Source of the DNA: Candidatus Bipolaricaulia bacterium
GTDB taxonomy: Bacteria > Bipolaricaulota > Bipolaricaulia > JBHIAT01
Assembly (NCBI GenBank): GCA_046758705.1
Contig: JBHIAT010000126.1
Span: 1 to 11,236, forward strand
Length of the DNA: 11,236 nt
Direction of reading: 5' to 3'
Numbering within the stretch: position 1 is the first letter of the stretch; each line of letters starts with the position of its first letter. A program made the translations under genes and the position numbers. The notes under the pieces were generated by a model. It was given only the letters and a program-made list of their open reading frames with translations. It was not told the DNA's origin and did not search any database. Below are positions 3 through 11,236 of the stretch, one piece after another.

Positions 3-3000
3 TGTACCGTCGACAGTGAGGTGTTCAAAACCCACCTAAACCAAGCCAGGGATTTGGAATCTAACAATCAATTTGAACAGGCGATTCAAGAATATGAGCA
101 GGCGGTGGCCCTATATCAGGGAGAGTTCCTCGCCGACGATCGCTACGAAGACTGGGCCATCCCCCATACAGAACGATGGCAGCAGACCTACCTCGACACC
201 TTGTCTCAACTGGCCGAATGCCACGCACGCCTGGGTCAATATCGAAGGGCAATCGCTCGATGCAACAAGATTCTAGAGATCGAGCCCTATCGCGAGCCGA
301 CCTACCGCCAATTGATGCTTTACCACTATTTAGTTGGGGATCCGGAACAGGCGATCCGGACCTATGAGCGGTTTCGCACCTTGCTGAATCAGGAACTGGA
401 CGCCGAACCCCTGCCTGAAACCCAACAGCTTTACGGACAGATCGTCGATCGGGAGATTGCAGGGATCGATGAGGTGTACCAGCCAGTCTCGGTGGTCGAG
501 CGCACCCCGATCCCAACGTTGTTGAAACGGGTCCCGTTTGTGAGTCGGGAGGGGGAATACGCCGAACTCGTCACCCATCTGGAGGAGGCCAAGGACGACA
601 GCGGGAGGACGGTTTTAATCTTTGGAGAGACGGGGATCGGCAAGACGCGCCTGGTCGAAGAGCTGATCCGTTATGGGCAATACCGATATCAGGTGCGGAC
701 CTTGGAAGGACGTTGTCATAAACTGAGTACCAGCCTGTCATATCAGCCGTTGATCGATGCGATTCGAGGCGGGCTGTCCCGGATCGATCCTCAGACGATC
801 GACATTGGACCGCTGTGGTTGGCCGAGGTGGCCGATCTGGTGCCTGAACTGCGTGACCTGATTGTGGACCTGCCTGCCAATCCGTCCCTGCCTCCGGAGT
901 TGAAACGGAATCGGCTGTTTGAAGGCCTGGTCCAGTTTTTCGCAGGACTGGCTCAGGCTGAGGGCCCGTTGGTACTGTTTCTGGACGACCTCCACTGGGT
1001 CGATCCGTCCACCTTGGACTTCTTGGCTTTCTTTTGTCCTCGCGTCGTCGACCACCCGATCTTGATCATCGGGACCTATCGCGGTGAGGAGGTTGAGGAA
1101 GCTCATCCGTTGATCAACTTGATCGAGTACGGAGAGCGACAAGGGACAGTGCACCACTATGAACTCCCTCGTCTCTCCGAGCAGGCGGTGGATCAACTGT
1201 TGAGCGAGATCGCTCCCCAGCTCGACCGATCGTTCCAGGAGCGAATCTACCAAGAGACACAGGGCAACCCGTTCTTCATCGTGGCGGTTCTACAGCACCT
1301 GTTTGAGGAAGGTCTATTGCGGGTGAGAGAGGACGGCACCTGGGCCTCCACAGTCGAGGAGATCCCCTCGGAGGATCGGGCTCGAGGACTGATGTTCCCG
1401 GAGATGGCGAAGGGGGTGATCCAAAGACGGTTGAGGCGGTTGAAGGACGAGGAACGCCAGTTGTTACAGCTGGCCGCGGTGATCGGAGAACGGTTCGAGT
1501 TTGAACTGCTCCAACGAATTGAGGGAGGAGAGACCACAGCGGCCTTAGAAACATTAGAAGGGTTAACCCAGGCTCAATTGCTGGTGGAGCAAGCGGACAT
1601 GGGAGACTACGCATTCAGCCACGGCAAGATCTGGGAAGCGGTCTACTACGATGAGCTCAGCGGGGCGAGGCGGAAGTGGCTCCATCGAAACGTGGGGGAA
1701 GCGTTAGAGCGAGCCTATGCCAATCGCCTAGAGGAGTATTCCGGACAGATTGCCGAACATTATTATCGTGGCGAGGTGTGGGAGAAAGCCGTAAAGTACC
1801 TGCTCAAAGCGGGCGAGAAAGCGCGGCGCGCTTACCTAAACGACGAGGCCATCGGCTATTTCCAGCGGACAGTGGAACAGCTACAGGGGTCTGCGTTGGG
1901 CGAGACTCATAAGGATTGGCAGCTGGAGGCATTGACAGGGTTGGGAGAGGTCTATCACGGGGTTGGGAATGAAGAAATCGCGGAAGATCACTTTCGAGAG
2001 GCAATTGCACTCGGCCAGGAGATCGGGTTGGCTCCCCGTGAACTCGTCCGACTCTATCATTGGCTGGGAGAGGTGCTGTGGTGGCAGAGCCGACACGATG
2101 AGGTGATTCGTATCGGAGAGGAGGGTCTGGCACTGTTAGGGGATGATACTGAATCTACCGAATCGGTTGAAGCCGCGTTGATGAATCAAACTATAGCAAG
2201 TAGCCACAACTTTAAGAGAAACTTCGAAAAAGGCCGTGAATTCATTTATAGAAATGCGAAATTCATCCAGCAGTTGCCCTATTCGGCGGAGCTCAGACCG
2301 GCTTACATTCATATTTTTGGCATGTATGCTCTTGACAAGGACATCGAAGAAGCATTGAAGTGGCTCCAGATCCTCGAGCAGAAGGCGGAAGGACACCACG
2401 ATGTGAGAGCACTGGGAGATGTATACCATCATGAGGGAGATACCCTGGCCAATCAGGGTGACCTGCACGGGGCCATTTCGCAGTACCAACAAGCCCTGGA
2501 ACTGTTTACAAAAATAGGAGATGCCAATCACGCAAATCGATCTCTGATTCGTATGGGAGAGGTCTCCTTGGCACTGGGCGACCTCCAAAAAGCTGAGGAG
2601 TATGCGCACAGAGGGCTCGAAACAGCAGAGATTGTAGGGGACAAGATAATGATCGCATGGGCATGCGAGAGAATGGGCACGATTTTCCTGTGTCAGAGTG
2701 CCTGGGAAGAGGCGGAGGAGGCGTTTCAGAGAGCCGCTCACCTATACCGGGAAACCAGCTCTCCTTACGAGGTGTGGCCACTCATGTCGTTAGGGCGAAC
2801 TTACCTGGCTCAGAAAAAGCGACGGGAGGCGTTGATGAAGTGTCAAGAGGTCTTCGCCCTGGTGACACTAGAAAGCTCCGCATTCCCTTACGCATTGACC
2901 AGGCTTGAAGAAGCGTACGACAATCCCAAAACGTTCCGTATCTTTTGTCAGCGCTTCCGAGAAGGACACCCCGAAGCCGACGGCTCGCCATTCGTACAAT

Positions 3001-3713
3001 GGTATCTGGAACCGACGGAGGCAATCGATTTCCCTCAAAACCTGATTCACGATGAGTTTGCCGATTCCCTTTCGTCCGATTGGGCCTGGCAGGACTCGTT
3101 TGATGACAGCTCGTTCACGGTAAACGATGGGCTGGAAATCCATGCCGCGAACGGACGAGACCTCGGTTCAATCACCAAATGGCAAATCAACCTGAACGCA
3201 CCGCGCATCCTCCGGCCGATCTCAGGAGATTTCTCGGTTCAGACGGTCTGCATGCCGGTTTCCAAAGAAAAACCAGCTATCGGTGGGCTTGTACTCTGGA
3301 AGGATCGGGAGAACTATCTCCGCCTCACTCGGGGAGTCAGAGGTGAGCACGAAATCTCGTTGGAGGGATGTCTGGGAAACAAAGATGTGATTATCGGTCA
3401 CGGACGTTTGGCCAGCGAGCGCGTTTATCTACGGCTGGAGCGGTTGGGTGATCGCGTGAACGCCCTGTGCAGCACAGATGGGATGGATTGGTACGCCGTC
3501 GGATCGGCGGCCTTTCCCATCGAGGATCCGGTTGAGGTCGGCCTACATGCCATCGGCACCATTAACCGCATTATCTACCCCGGTGCCTATCCCGATGGGA
3601 CGGCGATTCACTTTGAGTCGTTTCAGTTATGGGGGACTAAAGTATGGGGTTCATTCCTTCCTGGCTCTTTGCACATAGATCCGAACCCGACTGAGTCTAC
3701 GTTCAGACTGTGA
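3..3713 (+). CDS. SARP/AfsR-like transcriptional regulator: BTAD + STAND (AAA_16-type) ATPase + TPR repeats + C-terminal ConA-like/DUF1349-like domain; 5' end lies outside the window
   Basis: Frame is open from base 3 (CTVDSEVF, resembling the 'VD..F' BTAD start). BTAD motifs LYQGEFL..D.YEDW and EPYREPTYRQLM; Walker A GETGIGKT (624-647); Walker B LFLDDLHW; TQGNPFF; many TPR-like helices; beta-rich C-terminus (GDFSVQT, GGLVLWKD, YLRLER, STDGMDW). True stop may be TAA 3638-3640 (see findings). Confidence 0.9.
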   Translation, partial: CTVDSEVFKTHLNQARDLESNNQFEQAIQEYEQAVALYQGEFLADDRYEDWAIPHTERWQQTYLDTLSQLAECHARLGQYRRAIARCNKILEIEPYREPTYRQLMLYHYLVGDPEQAIRTYERFRTLLNQELDAEPLPETQQLYGQIVDREIAGIDEVYQPVSVVERTPIPTLLKRVPFVSREGEYAELVTHLEEAKDDSGRTVLIFGETGIGKTRLVEELIRYGQYRYQVRTLEGRCHKLSTSLSYQPLIDAIRGGLSRIDPQTIDIGPLWLAEVADLVPELRDLIVDLPANPSLPPELKRNRLFEGLVQFFAGLAQAEGPLVLFLDDLHWVDPSTLDFLAFFCPRVVDHPILIIGTYRGEEVEEAHPLINLIEYGERQGTVHHYELPRLSEQAVDQLLSEIAPQLDRSFQERIYQETQGNPFFIVAVLQHLFEEGLLRVREDGTWASTVEEIPSEDRARGLMFPEMAKGVIQRRLRRLKDEERQLLQLAAVIGERFEFELLQRIEGGETTAALETLEGLTQAQLLVEQADMGDYAFSHGKIWEAVYYDELSGARRKWLHRNVGEALERAYANRLEEYSGQIAEHYYRGEVWEKAVKYLLKAGEKARRAYLNDEAIGYFQRTVEQLQGSALGETHKDWQLEALTGLGEVYHGVGNEEIAEDHFREAIALGQEIGLAPRELVRLYHWLGEVLWWQSRHDEVIRIGEEGLALLGDDTESTESVEAALMNQTIASSHNFKRNFEKGREFIYRNAKFIQQLPYSAELRPAYIHIFGMYALDKDIEEALKWLQILEQKAEGHHDVRALGDVYHHEGDTLANQGDLHGAISQYQQALELFTKIGDANHANRSLIRMGEVSLALGDLQKAEEYAHRGLETAEIVGDKIMIAWACERMGTIFLCQSAWEEAEEAFQRAAHLYRETSSPYEVWPLMSLGRTYLAQKKRREALMKCQEVFALVTLESSAFPYALTRLEEAYDNPKTFRIFCQRFREGHPEADGSPFVQWYLEPTEAIDFPQNLIHDEFADSLSSDWAWQDSFDDSSFTVNDGLEIHAANGRDLGSITKWQINLNAPRILRPISGDFSVQTVCMPVSKEKPAIGGLVLWKDRENYLRLTRGVRGEHEISLEGCLGNKDVIIGHGRLASERVYLRLERLGDRVNALCSTDGMDWYAVGSAAFPIEDPVEVGLHAIGTINRIIYPGAYPDGTAIHFESFQLWGTKVWGSFLPGSLHIDPNPTESTFRL

Positions 3714-3907: not shown

Positions 3908-5094
3908 TCACCTCACCCCCCAAGCATAGTGGGTTACCTCCACCGACGAGAAACTCAGTCGGGGCGGACCCGTTCCCCCCGGCTTCGACGCCCGGGCCGG
4001 TTCCGGATCCGCTCCCCCGACCAGCCGCACCTGCGTGATCAACTCCCAGCCCTGCATCAGCGCCCGTTTGATCCAATTCCATCCGATCTTCAGATAGCTG
4101 CTCCCCCGAAACCAATGGGGATCGACCCAGCGCCGCTTCCCCTGCGCCACTACCTCCGTCCCCTGTGACACCAGGTACAACGTGGTCATCGCCATCACGA
4201 AGCACAGCCGGCTCAACGCCTGAGCCTCGCGCACCTCAGACGATTCCAACTGAAACCCGTTCGATTTATCGTCCAAGAAGTTCTCTTCAATGTCGAACCG
4301 CAACCCGTATTCCTCAAAGGTCTCCAGATCGGTCGGCTCATCGCTGACCACCACCCAACACGTCCGGCTTCCCCCCGGCCCCGGCCGCGCTAGCGCCAGA
4401 TGGACGGGACCATACTGGTGCTCGGTGATGGCGACATCATGAAAGAACCGCGCCTGGCCGCCTGCCACACAGATCGCCTTCACCTTGCGGCGCCACTGCC
4501 CCGCACGATACACCCAGAAGTTCCGTTTGATCCGGATGCGCCAATGCCACCCCAGCCGATCCAGATGGCGCATGAGCTTTGTGTCAGCGAAGCCGCGGTC
4601 CGCCAGCAGAACGACCCGGCAGACGGGCAGGGGCAGCAGCTGAGCTGCCCGATCCAGCAGATCTTGGTAGATCGCATAGGCGACGCTGGTGCTTGGCTGG
4701 TCCAGGACCCGCCACACGAGGGGCACCGCACGGCCCCGGTAGATCGCTGAGCCCGCACGATACAATACTTGCCCCATAACATGGAGGTGTCCAAGGCCAG
4801 GTAGAGCGTATGGTTTCCCCAGTGGGCCAAGGCGTGCTGAATCAGCGGGCCGTAGAGAGGATGGACCTCGATGCGGGGGTTGTGCAACCAGCGGGTGAAG
4901 CGGCGCACCGTACTTTGGACGTAGGTCGCTCGACTGTGGACGTAGGGGGCCCAAGCGGTCAGGCTGATTCGGCCAGACTGGATTAGGCCGACCATCATCC
5001 ACGCCAGCGTGTTGAGGTGGCGCAGATCCAGCCAGTTTTGGTGTTGACTCAAGACGCGGACCAGGGTATAGTAGAAACGAAGTGTGTTTTCCAT
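3908..5094 (-). pseudogene. IS4-family DDE transposase, frameshifted at ~4745-4752 (about 395 aa if repaired)
   Basis: N-terminal part MENTLRF...LALDTSMLWGKYCIVR (first catalytic D) lies in ORF 4480-5160. C-terminal part IYRGRAVPLVW...LADRGF (second D)...YGLRFDIEENFLDDK (IS4 Y-2-R-3-E-6-K signature) lies in ORF 3908-5002. AAGGAGG precedes ATG 5094. Confidence 0.9.
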
Positions 5095-5130
5095 GGTTCC
5101 CTCCTTCAGTGGTTTCGGGGAGGGAACCAT
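5093..5130 (-). promoter_or_regulatory. Perfect 12-bp stem-loop occluding the transposase SD and start codon
   Basis: mRNA sense reads ATGGTTCCCTCC-14 nt-GGAGGGAACCAT(G); the 3' arm contains the SD and the AT of the ATG. Confidence 0.75.
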
Positions 5131-5234
5131 CTTGTTTAGGCCACTGAGAAACTGGTTCATGGCGTGAGTTCCCTCCTCCTTTTTAGGAGAGTATAACGTG
5201 TCTTGAGCACTTTATGGAAGCCACACTTCCCGAC

Positions 5235-5251
5235 TTTTGTCGGTCAATCAG
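5235..5251. repeat. IS terminal inverted repeat (IRL, upstream of the transposase)
   Basis: ttttgtcggtcaatcag; pairs with 3890-3906. Confidence 0.85.
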
Positions 5252-5274
5252 GTCCTTACTGCCAATGTAGTATA

Positions 5275-5602
5275 ATGACGGTCCTCGGACAGTTCATGCT
5301 TTACAACTTGCTGCCCAGCCTGGTGGCAGGCGCCCTCGCCTGGCTGATGGTATACGCAGCCATTGTCTCTTTGAAAATCCAACGTGCGTCCCTGCGCCTG
5401 CCTTTGCTCTACGTTCCCTTGGTCAAATCCACATTAATCCTGCTTGGCATTGGGTTTGTACTGCCCTGGCCGCACGGGGTCTTTGCTGCCTGGAACGAAC
5501 ATGCCGTCCCACCTCTGGTCGTGCTACCCTATGTTCTACTCTGGATCGGGCGTGCTGACGTTTCTGATTGCTCTGCGAACCTTCAACTTTGCGCGGGAGT
5601 AA
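5275..5602 (+). pseudogene. Membrane protein, frameshifted or truncated at ~5548-5551; N-terminus resembles M56 (BlaR1/MecR1-type) membrane regions
   Basis: Hydrophobic segments MTVLGQFMLYNLLPSLVAGALAWLMVYAAIVSL, LRLPLLYVPLVKSTLILLGIG and VLPYVLLWIG. In-frame continuation is non-protein-like, while the +1 frame gives GVLTFLIALRTFNFARE* (TAA 5600-5602). The ORF-track start at 5203 lies inside the IS. No HExxH motif is present. Confidence 0.55.
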
Positions 5603-5653
5603 AAAGTAGAGGCGGACACAAGCAAGGAAATTATGATGACAACTTACCACAAT

Positions 5654-5683
5654 TTGACTCGCTCCTTTCCATTCACTTACAAT
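5654..5683 (+). promoter_or_regulatory. Sigma70-type promoter TTGACT-N18-TACAAT
   Basis: -35 at 5654-5659 and -10 at 5678-5683, in an AT-rich intergenic stretch ahead of CDS 5737. Confidence 0.7.
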
Positions 5684-5716
5684 GATCTTCGTCAGTGAAA
5701 CAGCTGACGAAGATCA
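5683..5716. promoter_or_regulatory. Perfect 13-bp inverted repeat (operator or 5' leader structure)
   Basis: TGATCTTCGTCAG-tgaaacag-CTGACGAAGATCA overlaps the predicted transcription start. Confidence 0.65.
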
Positions 5717-5736
5717 AAAACAAAAAGGGGGTACCC

Positions 5737-6351
5737 ATGATGAGGAGCATTTGGGCTCCGCTAACTGTGGCTGTTTTGGTGTTGACGGTGGTTATGACCC
5801 TGTTTTCCACCACCTCGTGGGCACACAAAGGAGTGACCGAGCTTGCCGAGGGGACTCTGGTTGAGCTGTTCTTCAAGGAGTCCAGCACGGGGACAAAGGG
5901 ATATGCGATCTATGACTTCAGCGTGGGACAGATTCGCGTCGAGGTCAAAGATCTGCCCCGGGCCGAGGTCGGCTATGAGGCGTTCCTCGTCGAGGTGGAC
6001 GTTCCCACCTTGGCAAACGCCGTTTTTGTCGATGGTGACCCGGACAAAGGCATCCGACCCGACTTCGATCTCACCTATGAGCAGGCGGTCGGGGCGGTGG
6101 TCAAGAGCGTGCAAAGCATCGGATCGTTTAACACGGACGCTCGCGGAAATGGGACGTTGGTCTTCAATGAAGGCAGGAATCTCCATTCTATAGGCTACAG
6201 TAAGTTCAATATGTTGATCATCTTTGAGCAGAATACTCCCGGTGTACATGAGGCACCCGAAGGGCGGGTCGTTCTGGAGTGTCACGGAACCCTCGAAGGC
6301 GCTCCGGGACCGGCCGTTCCGATTCGCGACATCGCGCCCTCTATGGGATAG
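5737..6351 (+). CDS. Secreted hypothetical protein (204 aa); Sec signal peptide, predicted mature N-terminal His, RskA-C-like beta-sandwich pattern
   Basis: RBS AAGGGGG precedes ATG 5737. Signal MMRSIWAPLTVAVLVLTVVMTLFSTTSWA|HKG. Pattern G.A..IRVEVKDLP...YEAFLV...SIGSF.TD..G.GTL...LIIFEQ...PEGRVVL resembles anti-sigma RskA C-terminal domains. Confidence 0.8.
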   Translation: MMRSIWAPLTVAVLVLTVVMTLFSTTSWAHKGVTELAEGTLVELFFKESSTGTKGYAIYDFSVGQIRVEVKDLPRAEVGYEAFLVEVDVPTLANAVFVDGDPDKGIRPDFDLTYEQAVGAVVKSVQSIGSFNTDARGNGTLVFNEGRNLHSIGYSKFNMLIIFEQNTPGVHEAPEGRVVLECHGTLEGAPGPAVPIRDIAPSMG

Positions 6352-7643: not shown

Positions 7644-7674
7644 TTGACCTTCCAGTTACTGGAAGGTGTATACT
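7644..7674 (+). promoter_or_regulatory. MerR-type promoter TTGACC-N19-TATACT with CueR-consensus operator ACCTTCC-N7-GGAAGGT
   Basis: -35 at 7644-7649, -10 at 7669-7674, 19-bp spacer; dyad ACCTTCCAGT-t-ACTGGAAGGT at 7647-7667. Confidence 0.93.
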
Positions 7675-7703
7675 TGACTTGAAAGCGCTAAAAGGAGGGA
7701 TCT

Positions 7704-7829
7704 GTGAGGGTGAAGCTACAAATTCTCGAATCACCGGGCTGCGCCAAGTGCGCGTCGGCGAAGCAGTCGGAGGTGAGAAAATGTCTCAAGCTTTGTACAT
7801 CGGCAAACTGGCAGAGCGGGTCGGTCTGA
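7704..7829 (+). pseudogene. Thioredoxin/glutaredoxin-like CxxC fragment (41-aa [44 protein letters not shown])
   Basis: Strong SD AAGGAGG before GTG 7704. A beta1-SPGCxxC-helix start typical of small thioredoxin-fold proteins breaks after about residue 21 at the merR RBS. Confidence 0.7.
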
Positions 7830-8224
7830 ATCCCAAGACGATCCGCTATTACGAGGAGATCGGGCTCCTTCCCGAGCCGGAGCGCACCAACTCAGGCTAC
7901 CGCGTGTACCGTTCTGAAGATGCCGAACGGCTGAAGTTCATCCGCAAGGCGAAGGCGCTCGGCCTGTCTCTGGATGAAGTTCGGGAGATCATCGAGATCC
8001 GTGAGCGTGGTCAACTTCCTTGTAGGCATGTGCGTCAGCTGTTGGCGCACAAGCTGAAGGAGCTGGAGGAGCACATCGACGAGCTGATCGCGTTCCGGGA
8101 CGATCTCCGAAGCTACGTGGCCGAGCTGGAGGAACGCGCCCAGGATCCGGACGAAGAGGCGATTTGCCCGCACATCGAGGGGTATTCGGGCGCGTTCACC
8201 GAGATCGGAGAGGTTCCCGAATGA
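7781..8224 (+). CDS. MerR-family heavy-metal-responsive transcriptional regulator (147 aa)
   Basis: SD GGAGGTG before ATG 7781; [52 protein letters not shown]; Cys81 and Cys129; the stop overlaps the ATPase start (ATGA). Confidence 0.95.
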
Positions 8225-10710
8225 GTGAGGTCCGCGAAAAACTTCAGGTCAAGATCGGCGGGATGTCGTGCAGCTTCTGCGTCCAATCGATCGAGAAGTC
8301 CCTGACCCGCATGGATGGTGTGGAACGGGCGTCGGTCAGCATCGCCCACGAAGAGGCGCTTGTGGGATACGATCCCGACCGGGTCACGGAAACCGAACTC
8401 AAGCAGACGCTCCGCGACCTCGGTTACACGATCCGCGATCCCGACAAGGTCAAGGCGTTCGAGGAGCAGCAGCAAGAGCTAAACACGGCCAGGCATCGCC
8501 TCCGGCTCGCCGGGATCTTCACGTTGCTGGCGCTGGGCTTCATGATCCTGATGTGGGTCCAGAAAGGGGTCTATATAGACGGCCACTTCACGGACACGAA
8601 CCGGCCGTGGATGGCGTTTGCCACGCTGGCTCTCGCCCTGGTCACGATGTTCGGCCCCGGGTGGACCATCAAGCGGAAGGCGTACCAGTCGGCCCGACGT
8701 GGCATTCTCAATCAGCACGTGCTGCTGGAGTTCGCCGCGTTCGCGGGCCTGTTCGGCGGTCTGTTGGGGCTTACCACGCTCTACAGTTCGGTGATGCGCG
8801 ACGGGTTGGGCGAGACGTTTCCCATCGTCCACTTCTTCGCCGTCTCTGTGTTCGTGACGGCCTATCACATTCTGTCCGAGTGGTCCAGCCTCCTGGTGCG
8901 GGCGCGGGCCGGCGAGAGCGTAAACAAGCTCATGGACCTCCAACCCGAGACGGCGCTGGTGATCCGAGAGGACGGGACCGAAGCGGAGGTGCCCGTCGCA
9001 GAGATCAAGGTCGGCGATCTCGTCCGCGTCAGACCCGGAACGGGGATTCCCGTCGACGGCGAGGTGATCGCGGGGGCTTCGACGGTGGACGAGAGCATCG
9101 TCACCGGCGAGCCCATGCCGGTCAAGAAGGCCGAAGGCACTGAGGTCGTGGGCGGCAGCATGAACCAGACGGGCGCGCTCAAGGTGCGCGTCACCCGCGT
9201 GGGAGACGAGGCGTTTCTCAACCAGGTCGCCCGCCACGTGACAGAGGCCCGGGCGATGAAGCCGGGGATCGTGCAGCTGGCGGACCTTGTGCTCAGCTAC
9301 TTCGTGCCCGGCGTGCTCGTGATCGCGGGAGCGGCGTTCCTGTTCTGGACGCTCGGTGCCTGGCTCATCTGGGGGGCGCCGCTGTGGGGACGGGCCGCGT
9401 TGGTGTTGGGCTATCCGTGCGCGTTGGGCATGGCCACGCCGCTCGCGCTGGTGCGAGGCGGCGGCATGGCGGCCGACCGCGGGATCCTGATGCGGGCCGG
9501 CGAGGCGTTCCAGATCTTCAAGGACGTCCAATACGTGGTGCTCGACAAGACGGGCACGATCACCATCGGAGAACCCGGCGTCGTCGAGGTCGTCCCGACT
9601 GAAGGCAGAGGCCGGGAGGACGTCCTCAGGTTGGCCGCTGGCGCCGAGACGGGCAGCGAGCACCCGTTGGCGCAGGCGATTCTGGAAGCGGCCGTGGCCG
9701 AAGAGATCGAGTGGGCCGAAGGTGAAGGTTTTCGGAGCCACAGCGGTCAAGGTGTGGAAGCCCACGTGGCCGACTCTGACGTTCGGGTTGGAAAACCGGG
9801 CTGGCTACGGGAGCGTGGCATCGAGCTCGCTCCGGTCAAAGAGAAGATCAAAGCACTCGAAGAGCAAGGCAACACCGTGGTCGCCGTGGCCACCGATGAC
9901 GAACTCGCGGGCCTCATCGCGATCGCCGATCGGCTCAAAGGGGACGCGGAAGAAGCGATCGCCCGCATGAAGAGGGCGGGGCTGGTGCCGATCATGCTCA
10001 CCGGGGACAACGCGCGCACCGCCCGCGCCGTGGCCACCCAGGTCGACATCGAAGAAGTCCTGGCCGAGGTGCTGCCCGATCAGAAGGCCGAGAAGATCCG
10101 GGAGCTCCAGGGCCGGGGCCACCGGGTGGCGATGGTCGGCGACGGGATCAACGACGCGCCGGCGCTGACCCAGGCCGACGTGGGGATCGCGATCGGCGCG
10201 GGCACGGACATCGCGATCGACTCCAGCGACGTGGTGCTCATCGGAGAGCGGCTGGGCGGCGTGGTGGACGCCTATTACATCGGCAGGAATTCTTACCAGA
10301 AGACCAAACAGAACCTAGCCGTCGCGTTCAGCTTCAACGGGGTTGGCGTGCCCGCGGCGACGACGGGCTGGGTCCACCCGATCTTTGCAATGATCGCGAT
10401 GGCCGCGAGCGTCACTGCGGTGCTCGCCAACAGTTTTGCAGGGCGATTGCTGACGGAGTCCGCATCGGTGGTGGAACGGGAGGAGCGACGTGTCCGGGAC
10501 GAACACGAGAGCGTAACGCTCCGTGTGCCGACGATGCACTGCGACGGATGCCTGGAGACCGTCATCGAGGCGGTGGCCCGGCTGGACGAGGTCGAATCGG
10601 TCGACGGTGACCTGGAGGAGAAGCTGATCACGGTGCGCTACCGGGACGATCGGGACGCACCGGCCAGGATCCGCCAGGCGGTCAAAGACGCCGGTTTCCC
10701 GGTGGGATGA
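8221..10710 (+). CDS. copA: Heavy-metal-translocating P1B-type ATPase, CopA-like (829 aa), with N- and C-terminal HMA domains
   Basis: GMSCSFC N-terminal domain; [19 protein letters not shown] (9544-9558); SEHP; TGDN; GDGIND; C-terminal TMHCDGC. The gene symbol is tentative because the membrane ligands are non-canonical. Confidence 0.93.
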
Positions 10711-10742
10711 TCACCAAGCGAAAAAGAGCAGGAGGTGACACC

Positions 10743-10967
10743 ATGGCGATCGAGAACGTGGAGCTGGAAGTGACCGGGTCGAACACGATCCACTGCACAG
10801 GCTGTGAGAACCGGATTGAGACGGTGCTGGGCAGGCTGCCCGGTGTGATGGAGATCAAGGCCGATCATAAGACCCAGAAAGTTCAGATCACCTTGGCTCA
10901 GAGCCGGACCTCGCTGGACGAAATTCGGGAGAAGATGGAGTTCATGGGATACGAGATCGCGTCGTAG
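10743..10967 (+). CDS. copZ: CopZ-like heavy-metal-associated (HMA) chaperone (74 aa)
   Basis: SD AGGAGGTG before ATG 10743; TIHCTGCENRIETVLGRLPGV...MGY ferredoxin-like HMA pattern. Confidence 0.9.
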   Translation: MAIENVELEVTGSNTIHCTGCENRIETVLGRLPGVMEIKADHKTQKVQITLAQSRTSLDEIREKMEFMGYEIAS

Positions 10968-11009
10968 CCTTTAAATCGGATGCACCCGATGTAGGTGAGT
11001 GAGAATCAC

Positions 11010-11236
11010 CTAAGATTTTCTCAGAACCAATGATAGGGCGTCTTTCAAACTCTTCAGTGCCTGAGTATCTCCTTTGGAGACACATTCATTGACGCAAGTC
11101 TCCATATGGCCTTCCAGCAGCTTGATGTTGACTTGGTTGAGGGCCGAGCGGATCGCGGCCAGTTGAATCAGGATGTCTTCACAGGGCTTGTGCGCTTCCA
11201 ACATGCTCTTGACGCCCCGGACGTGGCCCTCGATCC
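11010..11236 (-). CDS. csoR: CsoR/RcnR-family metal-sensing repressor, 5' end outside the window
   Basis: Frame extends to the edge: (R)IEGHVRGVKSMLEAHKPCEDILIQLAAIRSAL...LLEGHMETCV, with the Cys-His-Cys Cu(I)-type fingerprint. Confidence 0.9.
   Translation of the reverse strand, partial: IEGHVRGVKSMLEAHKPCEDILIQLAAIRSALNQVNIKLLEGHMETCVNECVSKGDTQALKSLKDALSLVLRKS

Follow-up and report, generated by a model that had tools for sequence, protein, structure and literature searches.

A conserved YPC-type branch of CopA-like P1B ATPases with a rewired ion path in Bacteria and Archaea

Introduction

Three membrane motifs commonly serve to predict which metal a P1B ATPase transports, and genome annotation, surveys of resistance genes and biomining studies rely on this practice. 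What, then, is to be made of a pump in which all three are changed? This question is raised by contig JBHIAT010000126.1 of a Candidatus Bipolaricaulia bacterium (assembly GCA_046758705.1), which encodes a P1B ATPase between a MerR-type regulator and a small HMA protein. The window analysed here is the whole contig of 11,236 bp (C126 in the 319-contig, 3.70-Mb assembly). A preliminary description of this DNA had pointed out YPC, FN and MxxSV at the places of the CPC, YN and MxxSS of copper pumps; these motifs belong to membrane helices M4, M5 and M6. In this study, we investigated whether these changes belong to a decayed copper pump or to a lineage of its own, and which metal such a pump may move. 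We found that the YPC-type pump is a real, conserved variant within the P1B ATPases.

An intact P1B ATPase with altered ligands

The ATPase open reading frame covers 8164..10710 on the forward strand, which is also the strand of all features below unless stated otherwise. Starting from the ATG at 8221 it encodes an intact protein of 829 amino acids (8221..10710), the same length as the database entry. All three motifs lie exactly where they had been described and are in frame, namely TAT CCG TGC at 9412-9420 (Y398-P399-C400), TTC AAC at 10333-10338 (F705-N706) and ATG GCC GCG AGC GTC at 10399-10413 (M727-A-A-S730-V731). A HMMER alignment to Archaeoglobus fulgidus CopA (AfCopA; PDB 3j09) sets YPC on CPC, FN on YN and MAASV on MAMSS.

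Membership in the P1B family follows from the complete catalytic motifs TGE (9103-9111), DKTGT (the phosphorylation motif, 9544..9558), SEHP (9655-9666), TGDN (10000-10011) and GDGINDAP (10138-10161), all identified by motif reading, and the Pfam domains E1-E2_ATPase and Hydrolase were detected as well. Among the NCBIfam models, the protein passed the cut-offs of the P1B family (TIGR01525, 554.1 vs 346.25), the Cu subfamily (TIGR01511, 457.5 vs 397) and the broad subfamily TIGR01512 (373.4 vs 313.5), and it stayed far under that of the CopA equivalog NF007952 (488.5 vs 1316). Its best relatives in the PDB are Cu+ pumps (ATP7B, 2.6e-142; AfCopA, 4.9e-142), whereas the match to the P1B-2 pump ZntA is much weaker (4.6e-82). 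The AlphaFold2 model, computed with 21 clade members as input (mean predicted local distance difference test score, pLDDT, 83.1), contains the expected eight helices (MA 78-115, MB 129-159, M1 165-196, M2 202-238, M3 349-384, M4 399-419, M5 680-714, M6 720-744) with YPC at the unwound start of M4. Together with the kinked M4 bearing xPC, the two HMA domains complete a typical P1B architecture. The N-terminal HMA domain (residues 10-70, 8248..8430, Pfam HMA) carries CSFC at 8269-8280; the C-terminal one (10507..10701), visible as a second Pfam HMA stretch and as a MerP-model stretch over residues 763-827, carries M-H-C-D-G-C at 10537-10551.

With the P1B-1 pumps (CopA of A. fulgidus and Legionella pneumophila, ATP7A/B), the window pump shares the eight helices, the N-terminal HMA domain, the Pro-Cys kink in M4, the Asn in M5, the Met and first Ser in M6 and the Asp of the LAD motif in M3. 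It differs from them in the first Cys of M4 (Tyr), the Tyr of M5 (Phe), the second Ser of M6 (Val) and the entry-site residues, where Q165 and S223 replace M158 and E205 of AfCopA; moreover, the M2 carboxylates are lost, M404, M724, E170 and H166 are gained and a C-terminal HMA domain with HCxxC is added. P1B-2 pumps such as ZntA and CadA, to which the TIGR01512 score is a point of likeness, combine CPC with a Lys in M5 and DxG in M6, and the genome's own Zn-type paralogs (contigs C47 and C135) show K and DMG, whereas the window pump has N706 and AMAASV at these places. P1B-3 and P1B-4 pumps are defined by CPH and SPC in M4, respectively, where the window pump has YPC, and CopB of Sulfolobus solfataricus (PDB 2iye) is only distantly related. 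Judged by its sequence, the ATPase fails each ligand-level defining feature of P1B-1, P1B-2, P1B-3 and P1B-4, while its motifs suggest a catalytically intact enzyme descended from P1B-1-like pumps.

YPC-type pumps form a single branch

In order to see whether the three changes go together in homologs, we scanned 1.84 billion cluster representatives with HMMER. This yielded 19,207 proteins at E <= 1e-30, and 21 of the best 150 were of the YPC type. A database search gave 120 closest proteins that are 60-75% identical in the core; their named sources are Bipolaricaulia, Dehalococcoidia, NC10, Nitrospinota, Planctomycetes, Rubrobacter and many Halobacteria. A regular expression for YPC matched 117 of 121 proteins (the query being counted twice) and did not match four. 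In one MAFFT alignment of the collected sequences (n = 270), 140 carry YPC.

The alignment is dominated by two combinations, YPC/FN/MxxSV (127/270) and CPC/YN/MxxSS (123/270). Mixed forms are rare: CPC/YN/MxxSD and CPC/FN/MxxSS were found twice each, and six YPC sequences have VN, AN, YN, MxxST, MxxSI or MxxSA. The remainder consists of seven YPC fragments truncated or unreadable at M5/M6, one SPC sequence, one CIC sequence and one fragment lacking M4. Considering each helix separately, the 133 YPC sequences covered at M5 show FN (129), VN (2), YN (1) or AN (1), and the 133 read at M6 show MxxSV (129), MxxST (2), MxxSI (1) or MxxSA (1), while YN and MxxSS each occur in 125 of the 127 CPC sequences. 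The full triplet is thus present in 127 of 140 YPC sequences and in none of the CPC sequences, which bears out the proposed co-variation. An independent set of 83 loci, retrieved with an M4-motif DNA pattern alone, gave the same result, with FN in 67 of 71 covered loci (YN in none) and MxxSV in 64 of 69 (MxxSS in none).

We also built the phylogeny that had been suggested as a check, using FastTree on 77 rows, anchored by the eight P1B paralogs of this genome. Rooted with Zn- and SPC-type pumps, all 33 YPC rows, the window pump among them, fall on one branch beside the CPC-type CopAs (support 100, given as Shimodaira-Hasegawa-like values only). Graded forms lie at the base of this branch: SPC/YN/MxxSF (P0185), YPC/AN/MxxSV (P0144), YPC/FN/MxxST (P0134) and YPC/YN/MxxST (P0129). 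Because the clade has a single origin, the co-variation reflects a state that was fixed once and then conserved by selection, and not repeated independent co-change.

That YPC variants exist elsewhere had been expected, and their distribution turned out to be broad. Besides the 21 cluster representatives, at least 120 metagenome stretches match the YPC DNA pattern, and YPC pumps were found on many haloarchaeal plasmids as well as on plasmids of Deinococcus, Leisingera, Nitrobacter, Afipia, Paraburkholderia, Cupriavidus and Cytobacillus. Within the window's own phylum, the pattern matched 4 of 184 genomes, including this one, and it matched none of 301 genomes in the phylum of a Methanocella metagenome-assembled genome; these genome counts are lower bounds, since the pattern is strict and misses a YPCAIGISAP variant. 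The latter, which still has FN, MxxSV and NQH, is encoded on plasmids of Nitrobacter, Afipia, Paraburkholderia and Cupriavidus. Overall, the clade is an old, monophyletic and often plasmid-borne branch of CopA-like pumps that spans Bacteria and Archaea.

The Bipolaricaulia genome itself holds eight full P1B pumps: two CPC-type Cu pumps, two Zn-type, one SPC, one CPH and two YPC pumps. Beyond the window, the pumps, a MerA and an additional MerR are distributed over contigs C53, C70, C47, C135, C104, C176, C63 and C41. The YPC pumps are therefore an addition to a complete standard set of P1B pumps, and the two of them belong to different subclades, each with its own MerR.

Rewiring of the ion path

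Comparing 39 non-redundant YPC with 127 CPC sequences position by position, we found that the differences extend well past the three motifs. As reference served AfCopA, whose entry site consists of M158, E205 and D336 and whose M4-M6 ligands are C380, C382, Y682, N683, M711, S714 and S715 according to PMC9433437; the chain index of 3j09 equals this numbering minus 14.

At the entry, the alignment assigns N164-Q165-H166 and E170 (8710..8730) to the beginning of M1. Q165 corresponds to AfCopA M158 and is Q in 33/39 YPC as opposed to M in 127/127 CPC sequences; the adjacent H166 is H in 32/39 YPC and D in 91/127 CPC sequences; E170 is E in 28/39 YPC sequences, with mostly A, S or V in CPC sequences. 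The M2 segment (A207, Y215-H216 and S223; 8839..8889) lacks both carboxylates: A207, equivalent to AfCopA E189 (chain residue 175 + 14), is A or G in YPC and E/D in 117/127 CPC sequences, and S223, equivalent to AfCopA E205, is S in 33/39 YPC and E in 127/127 CPC sequences. Y215 and H216 are conserved in the YPC clade, H216 also in the nearest CPC sisters, and position 344 is R in the YPC and Q in the CPC clade.

In the aligned M4 site (9412..9432), G397 and Y398 are conserved, the latter taking the place of AfCopA C380, and M404 (9430-9432) is M in 36/39 YPC sequences where 126/127 CPC sequences have L; L408 and R412 are conserved within the YPC clade. M5 (10333..10338) has F at position 705 in YPC and Y in CPC sequences (AfCopA Y682). 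In M6 (10390..10413), M724 is M in 31 of 35 covered YPC sequences and A, G or S in CPC sequences, and position 731 is V in YPC and S in 125/127 CPC sequences (AfCopA S715). Retained from CopA are C400, N706, M727, S730 and the Asp of LAD. The pattern-fetched loci agree with these assignments (Q165 71/73, H216 75/76, S223 74/77, M724 68/68), and the window pump bears the full set of clade features, i.e. the motif triplet, Q165, S223, M404, M724, R412 and its position inside the YPC branch.

At sequence level, the rewiring covers entry, site and exit, and the Tyr that seems to have switched helices, as previously proposed, is one possible reading within this much wider change. From P1B topology and the model helices, M404 is predicted to sit a helical turn nearer to the cytoplasm than C400, and M724 a turn further out than M727, so that M404-C400-M727-M724 would form a Met-Cys-Met-Met ladder.

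Operon, operator and regulator

The pump gene is the second of a three-gene operon (7644-10967) for a MerR-type sensor, the YPC-type ATPase and an HMA chaperone under a MerR-activated promoter. Both gene junctions are ATGA overlaps of stop and start codon, merR with the ATPase gene at 8221-8224 and the ATPase gene with the third gene at 10707-10710. The latter (10707..10967) encodes a small chaperone-like protein of 86 amino acids with I-H-C-T-G-C at 10794-10805, which matches Pfam HMA with 53 bits and scores under the NCBIfam cut-offs for CopZ. A terminator-like hairpin 3' of this gene (10992..11012) is weak evidence of a transcript end, as four such sites occur in the region with 2.4 expected.

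The promoter (7644..7674), as read from the sequence, consists of a -35 element TTGACC (7644-7649) and a -10 element TATACT (7669-7674) separated by 19 bp. A 19-bp spacer is a hallmark of MerR-family activated promoters; a simple sigma-70 scan, restricted to spacers of 16-18 nt, does not list this promoter. The spacer region contains an operator at 7647..7667, a perfect dyad ACCTTCCAGT t ACTGGAAGGT with 10+10 nt and 100% complementarity. Upstream of copA in Escherichia coli MG1655, the sequence TTGACCTTCCCCTTGCTGGAAGGT has identical half-sites in the same register to the -35 element, and in both promoters ACCTTCC N7 GGAAGGT overlaps a TTGACC -35 element that is followed by the 19-bp spacer. 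The window thus has a CueR-type operator within a 19-bp-spacer promoter. Boxes of this kind (<= 2 mismatches) were detected at 7/84 YPC and 5/80 CPC loci, with 0 and 2 sites in the shuffled controls.

The regulator (7781..8224, 147 amino acids; Pfam MerR_1, MerR-DNA-bind and MerR) is of a different kind. Aligned with E. coli CueR and a Tn501-like MerR, it has Cys81 at the position of the CueR Ser and MerR Cys, a single loop Cys (Cys129) followed by Pro and His131, and no Cys at the place of the first loop Cys of CueR. It shares the second loop Cys and subsequent Pro with CueR, where the dimerisation helix starts with Ser and the loop holds two Cys instead of one; two of the three Cys columns of Hg(II)-sensing MerR are occupied, the first loop Cys being the missing one. 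A Cys at the CueR-Ser position also occurs in the MerR-family regulators of P1B-2 pumps. The protein stays under all NCBIfam equivalog cut-offs (MerR TIGR02051, 106.5 vs 150.85; CueR TIGR02044, 97 vs 147.4), and none of 11 partner MerRs of YPC pumps exceeded a cut-off in the same models, so that no metal could be assigned to them.

This regulator type recurs with the pump. The preliminary description had called for a test of co-occurrence, and a MerR gene lies within 2 kb of 35/80 YPC loci; in 24 aligned partner MerRs, the Cys81 column holds Cys in 19 and Ser in none, 22 have the loop Cys, and just 5 have a Cys near the first loop Cys of CueR. Proteobacterial partners possess three to four Cys arranged as in MerR or CadR. 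In the same genome, the second YPC pump (contig C176) is preceded by a MerR with 76% identity to that of the window and the same Cys/His pattern, and also by a DsbD_2/CcdA-like membrane protein, with the CPH pump following after a 0.8-kb gap. A third copy of the Cys81-type MerR is located on contig C41 behind a DsbD_2-like membrane protein and without a pump. Together with the ATGA overlaps, the repetition of the regulator type at the second paralog supports the proposal that the pump, its atypical MerR and the HMA chaperone belong to one coherent module.

Other genes of the window include a CsoR/RicR-like repressor (Cys...His...Cys pattern) on the reverse strand at 11010-11234, convergent with the chaperone gene; it is cut by the contig end, and its targets lie beyond. 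An IS4/IS701-family transposase at 3908-5160 on the reverse strand, 2.6-3 kb upstream, is split into two overlapping frames (4480-5160 and 3908-5002) and represents a frameshifted or programmed-frameshift element. The contig start cuts a 1236-amino-acid BTAD-AAA_16-TPR regulator with a C-terminal DUF1349 (3-3713). Between them and the operon are encoded a 160-amino-acid membrane protein (5203-5685) and a 218-amino-acid protein with a hydrophobic N-terminal segment (5695-6351), neither of which matched any Pfam or NCBIfam family.

Recurrent neighbours and fusions

Next, we surveyed the neighbours of YPC pumps by tblastn in the 2-kb flanks of 80 metagenome loci with the M4 pattern. As controls served 80 ordinary CopA loci (~33% identity) from among the matches listed, all read at 5 kb and 76 CPC/CPH loci trimmed to 2 kb. 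MerR was found at 35/80 YPC loci (controls: 6/76 at 2 kb, 8/80 at 5 kb), DUF7482 at 18/80 (0/76, 0/80), MerA at 5/80 plus one partial (0/76, 0/80) and CsoR at 3/80 (32/76, 34/80), a contrast that is suggestive and not a test, since the two sets differ in source and taxonomy and the control is rich in Firmicutes. In its three YPC loci, CsoR is encoded upstream of the pump on the same strand.

The DUF7482 gene (PF24298) is on the pump's strand at all 18 loci and directly downstream at 17 of them; in Deinococcus it overlaps the 3' end of the pump gene, and in a same-phylum relative with 71% identity the gene order is MerR-DUF7482-pump. Examples are L096:4414-5013 (+) and L221:9231-9791, with 18 among loci L099-L178. 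The protein combines an N-terminal helix or membrane anchor with a confidently modelled alpha/beta domain (pLDDT 90.4) and has invariant His/Met motifs and no conserved Cys. With its model as query, neither Foldseek (E <= 0.001) nor VIA (Z >= 2) gave a match, which does not imply a new fold, and our literature search returned nothing on DUF7482. No DUF7482 was found in the Bipolaricaulia genome, and the window frame at 5695-6351, considered as a candidate, does not encode it.

Further connections lead to thiol-redox proteins. On the proteobacterial plasmids with the YPCAIGISAP variant, the cluster reads HMA-pump-(MFS or HMA)-MerR-Trx_3-CcdA-(MerT-MerP or MFS), and Cytobacillus has the same gene set in the order CsoR-like-Trx-HMA-CcdA-HMA-pump. 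In four YPC pumps, Trx_3 is fused to the N-terminus (P0394, P0403, P0455) or the C-terminus (P0476); from its place at the pump termini, the Trx_3 domain would be cytoplasmic. The fusions and the free Trx_3/CcdA genes suggest a functional tie of the pump to a thiol-redox pair. The HMA domains likewise show a recurring pattern: a C-terminal HMA tail is present at 27 of 65 complete C-termini among the pattern-fetched loci, and within 406 YPC sequences [MILV]H precedes the C-terminal CxxC in 233/256. In the window, His directly precedes CxxC in both the C-terminal HMA domain (MHCDGC) and the chaperone (IHCTGC). The N-terminal HMA of YPC pumps mostly has M[SAQ] before CxxC, as in the MSCSFC of the window pump.

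YPC pumps in the literature

In the literature that could be searched, YPC in a metal pump came up only as passing mentions (PMC4541151, PMC11082258 and one preprint version), and an earlier naming is possible. None of the searchable papers connects YPC with FN or MxxSV, with altered entry residues, with DUF7482 or with this type of MerR, and searches on merA/P-type ATPases and CcdA/Trx brought up nothing on the YPC clade. The subtype had been called poorly characterised; this stands insofar as no biochemical characterisation turned up in the searchable literature, and needs qualification insofar as the passing mentions include a functional test. According to the accessible text of PMC11082258 (Li et al. 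2022), the pump in question, CopAL6, is encoded by a synthetic metagenomic copA-like gene and shares with the window pump YPC in the sixth helix and an HMA domain at each end. Compared by this description, it probably belongs to the YPC clade, which makes its phenotype, as far as reported there, the sole functional datum for the type.

Which metal do YPC pumps transport?

The preliminary description held that the substrate cannot be read from the motif rules, and this is still the case after our analysis. In the mechanism that we propose, the pump would use ATP to export a soft, thiophilic cation, which it would receive from CxxC domains, i.e. from the N- and C-terminal HMA, the free chaperone and, in some relatives, Trx_3. 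The sulfur triad by which CopA takes up Cu+ (entry Met and the two Cys of CPC) would be cut to one Cys, and with both conserved M2 carboxylates gone, the gained M404 in M4 and M724 in M6 as well as E170 and H166 at the mouth may shape the new path. The ion would move along the Met-Cys-Met-Met ladder and, in many relatives, would be delivered on the outside to the membrane-anchored, Met/His-rich DUF7482 protein.

Our leading candidate for this ion is Cu+ and/or Ag+, exported at the expense of ATP, a reading that we regard as evenly poised. It is favoured by descent from CopA-like pumps, by the retention of N706, M727 and S730 without any acidic residue at the M4-M6 site positions examined, and by the gained thioethers, which in general coordination chemistry suit Cu+ and Ag+. 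The operator half-sites identical to the E. coli CueR box, the Cys-free DUF7482 with its invariant His and Met residues, and the copper genes adjoining some relatives, namely a four-helix-bundle copper-binding protein (Deinococcus), multicopper oxidase (MCO) or cop clusters, DUF411 and the upstream CsoR of three loci, point in the same direction. PMC4541151 also states that CopA of S. solfataricus, a verified Cu-resistance pump, uses YPC; if that is right, genetic evidence for Cu and Ag resistance exists for a YPC pump (Vollmecke et al. 2012, as cited in PMC10694973).

Several observations weigh against copper or silver. A Cys at the CueR-Ser position, the prevailing state in the partner MerRs, reportedly marks sensors of +2 ions, a rule said to stem from Changela et al. 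in 2003. The genome already has two CPC-type CopAs and a CPH pump, so that the need for yet another type of Cu pump is not evident. In the accessible text of PMC11082258, CopAL6 did not rescue an E. coli delta-copA strain and made it more sensitive to Cu while raising Cu accumulation. The statement on S. solfataricus CopA found no confirmation: searches with P0131 and P0129 named no Sulfolobales protein, and CopA orthologs of S. metallicus carry CPCALGLA according to PMC3595675. The partners of S. solfataricus CopA are of the TRASH/Lrp type and not MerR. Finally, mercury genes accompany some of the pumps, as detailed below.

The most serious alternative, which we consider possible though rather doubtful, is export of mercury, either as Hg(II) or as a monovalent cation of the organomercurial or Hg-thiolate kind, or else of a different thiophilic divalent ion, e.g. 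Cd2+ or Pb2+. The charge would then be balanced by the phenolate of the Tyr and the thiolate of the one Cys, the Cys81-type MerR would sense the ion and the pump would act beside MerA. The Cys column of the partner MerRs and the MerR- or CadR-like proteobacterial regulators fit this scheme, as does the failure of CopAL6 as a Cu exporter in the accessible report (PMC11082258). Within 2 kb, merA accompanies 5-6 of the 80 YPC loci, as opposed to none of the CPC controls (76 at 2 kb, 80 at 5 kb); in L154 and L165, it lies directly upstream in single-strand merA-pump-MFS operons, with a 12-nt overlap and at 86 nt, respectively. The pumps of these two loci come from different subclades, and merA-adjacent pumps occur in at least four. 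The MerA identity in L107, L154 and L165 is based on TIGR02053 as best NCBIfam match and a C-terminal SCC tail. Further cases are merB adjoining the pump in L129, merA near the pump on Haloarcula pNG600 and on plasmids of Afipia, Cytobacillus and Cupriavidus, and MerT and MerP in the same-strand cluster after the pump in Afipia and Nitrobacter. The Bipolaricaulia genome also encodes a core MerA of 467 amino acids with an SCC end on contig C63, beside a transposase-like gene.

However, one membrane Cys with thioethers would be a poor Hg2+ site, MerT, MerC, MerF and ZntA being known to use Cys pairs, and the pump has no P1B-2-like acidic residue for a +2 charge, whereas the genome's own Zn-type paralogs do show K and DxG. 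DUF7482 lacks Cys, Pfam and NCBIfam scans detected no mer gene in the window, and the absence of merA from the 80 CPC loci examined comes from a control set unlike the YPC set in source and taxonomy. Copper and mercury genes also often reside together on mobile islands without being coupled, e.g. in the COMER element. A bolder form of this alternative, which we hold to be somewhat less probable again, is that the clade is the first dedicated family of mercury P-type ATPases, with a one-thiolate, Tyr-assisted site for Hg(II) or monovalent R-Hg+/Hg-thiolate. If true, a Cys-type MerR would act on a CueR-like operator, in operons with MerA, MFS, Trx_3/CcdA and MerT/P, and this would constitute a mercury-resistance route outside the textbook mer operon.

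It is improbable that the pump works inward or in metallation, supplying the cell or a partner with a soft metal that an enzyme would use or MerA would reduce. Both the entry and exit residues of CopA are replaced, and cells with CopAL6 had the highest cellular Cu of all constructs together with lower tolerance, as far as the accessible text of PMC11082258 reports. The extra Cu may, however, simply reflect binding by the two HMA domains or expression stress. All well-studied P1B pumps export, and the MerR-activated promoter and the resistance-island contexts fit detoxification. Private decay, by which a CopA with lost ligands would be inactive or on the way to a pseudogene, has next to no likelihood: three canonical ligands are missing and an IS4-family transposase lies upstream, but a deep clade of Bacteria and Archaea has conserved these very residues, which refutes it, the catalytic motifs are all intact, the operon genes are translationally coupled, and two paralogs from different subclades each retain their own MerR in one genome.

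Implications for the P1B family

These results describe a large branch in Bacteria and Archaea, represented twice in this genome, that breaks all three motifs used for reading P1B specificity in a fixed and conserved manner and has a distinct regulator type and an extracytoplasmic partner of its own, DUF7482. Such pumps are now annotated generically as 'heavy metal translocating' or 'Cu+-exporting' ATPases, while the sole tested YPC-type pump, CopAL6, behaved unlike CopA in the accessible account of that work (PMC11082258). If the substrate is Cu+/Ag+, the pumping chemistry of the family would be wider than assumed and include one thiolate with thioethers; if not, the clade would turn out to pump mercury or some other soft metal. 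Either outcome would correct the annotation of thousands of genes, and the YPC clade offers a natural experiment on the debated number and nature of the transport sites in CopA.

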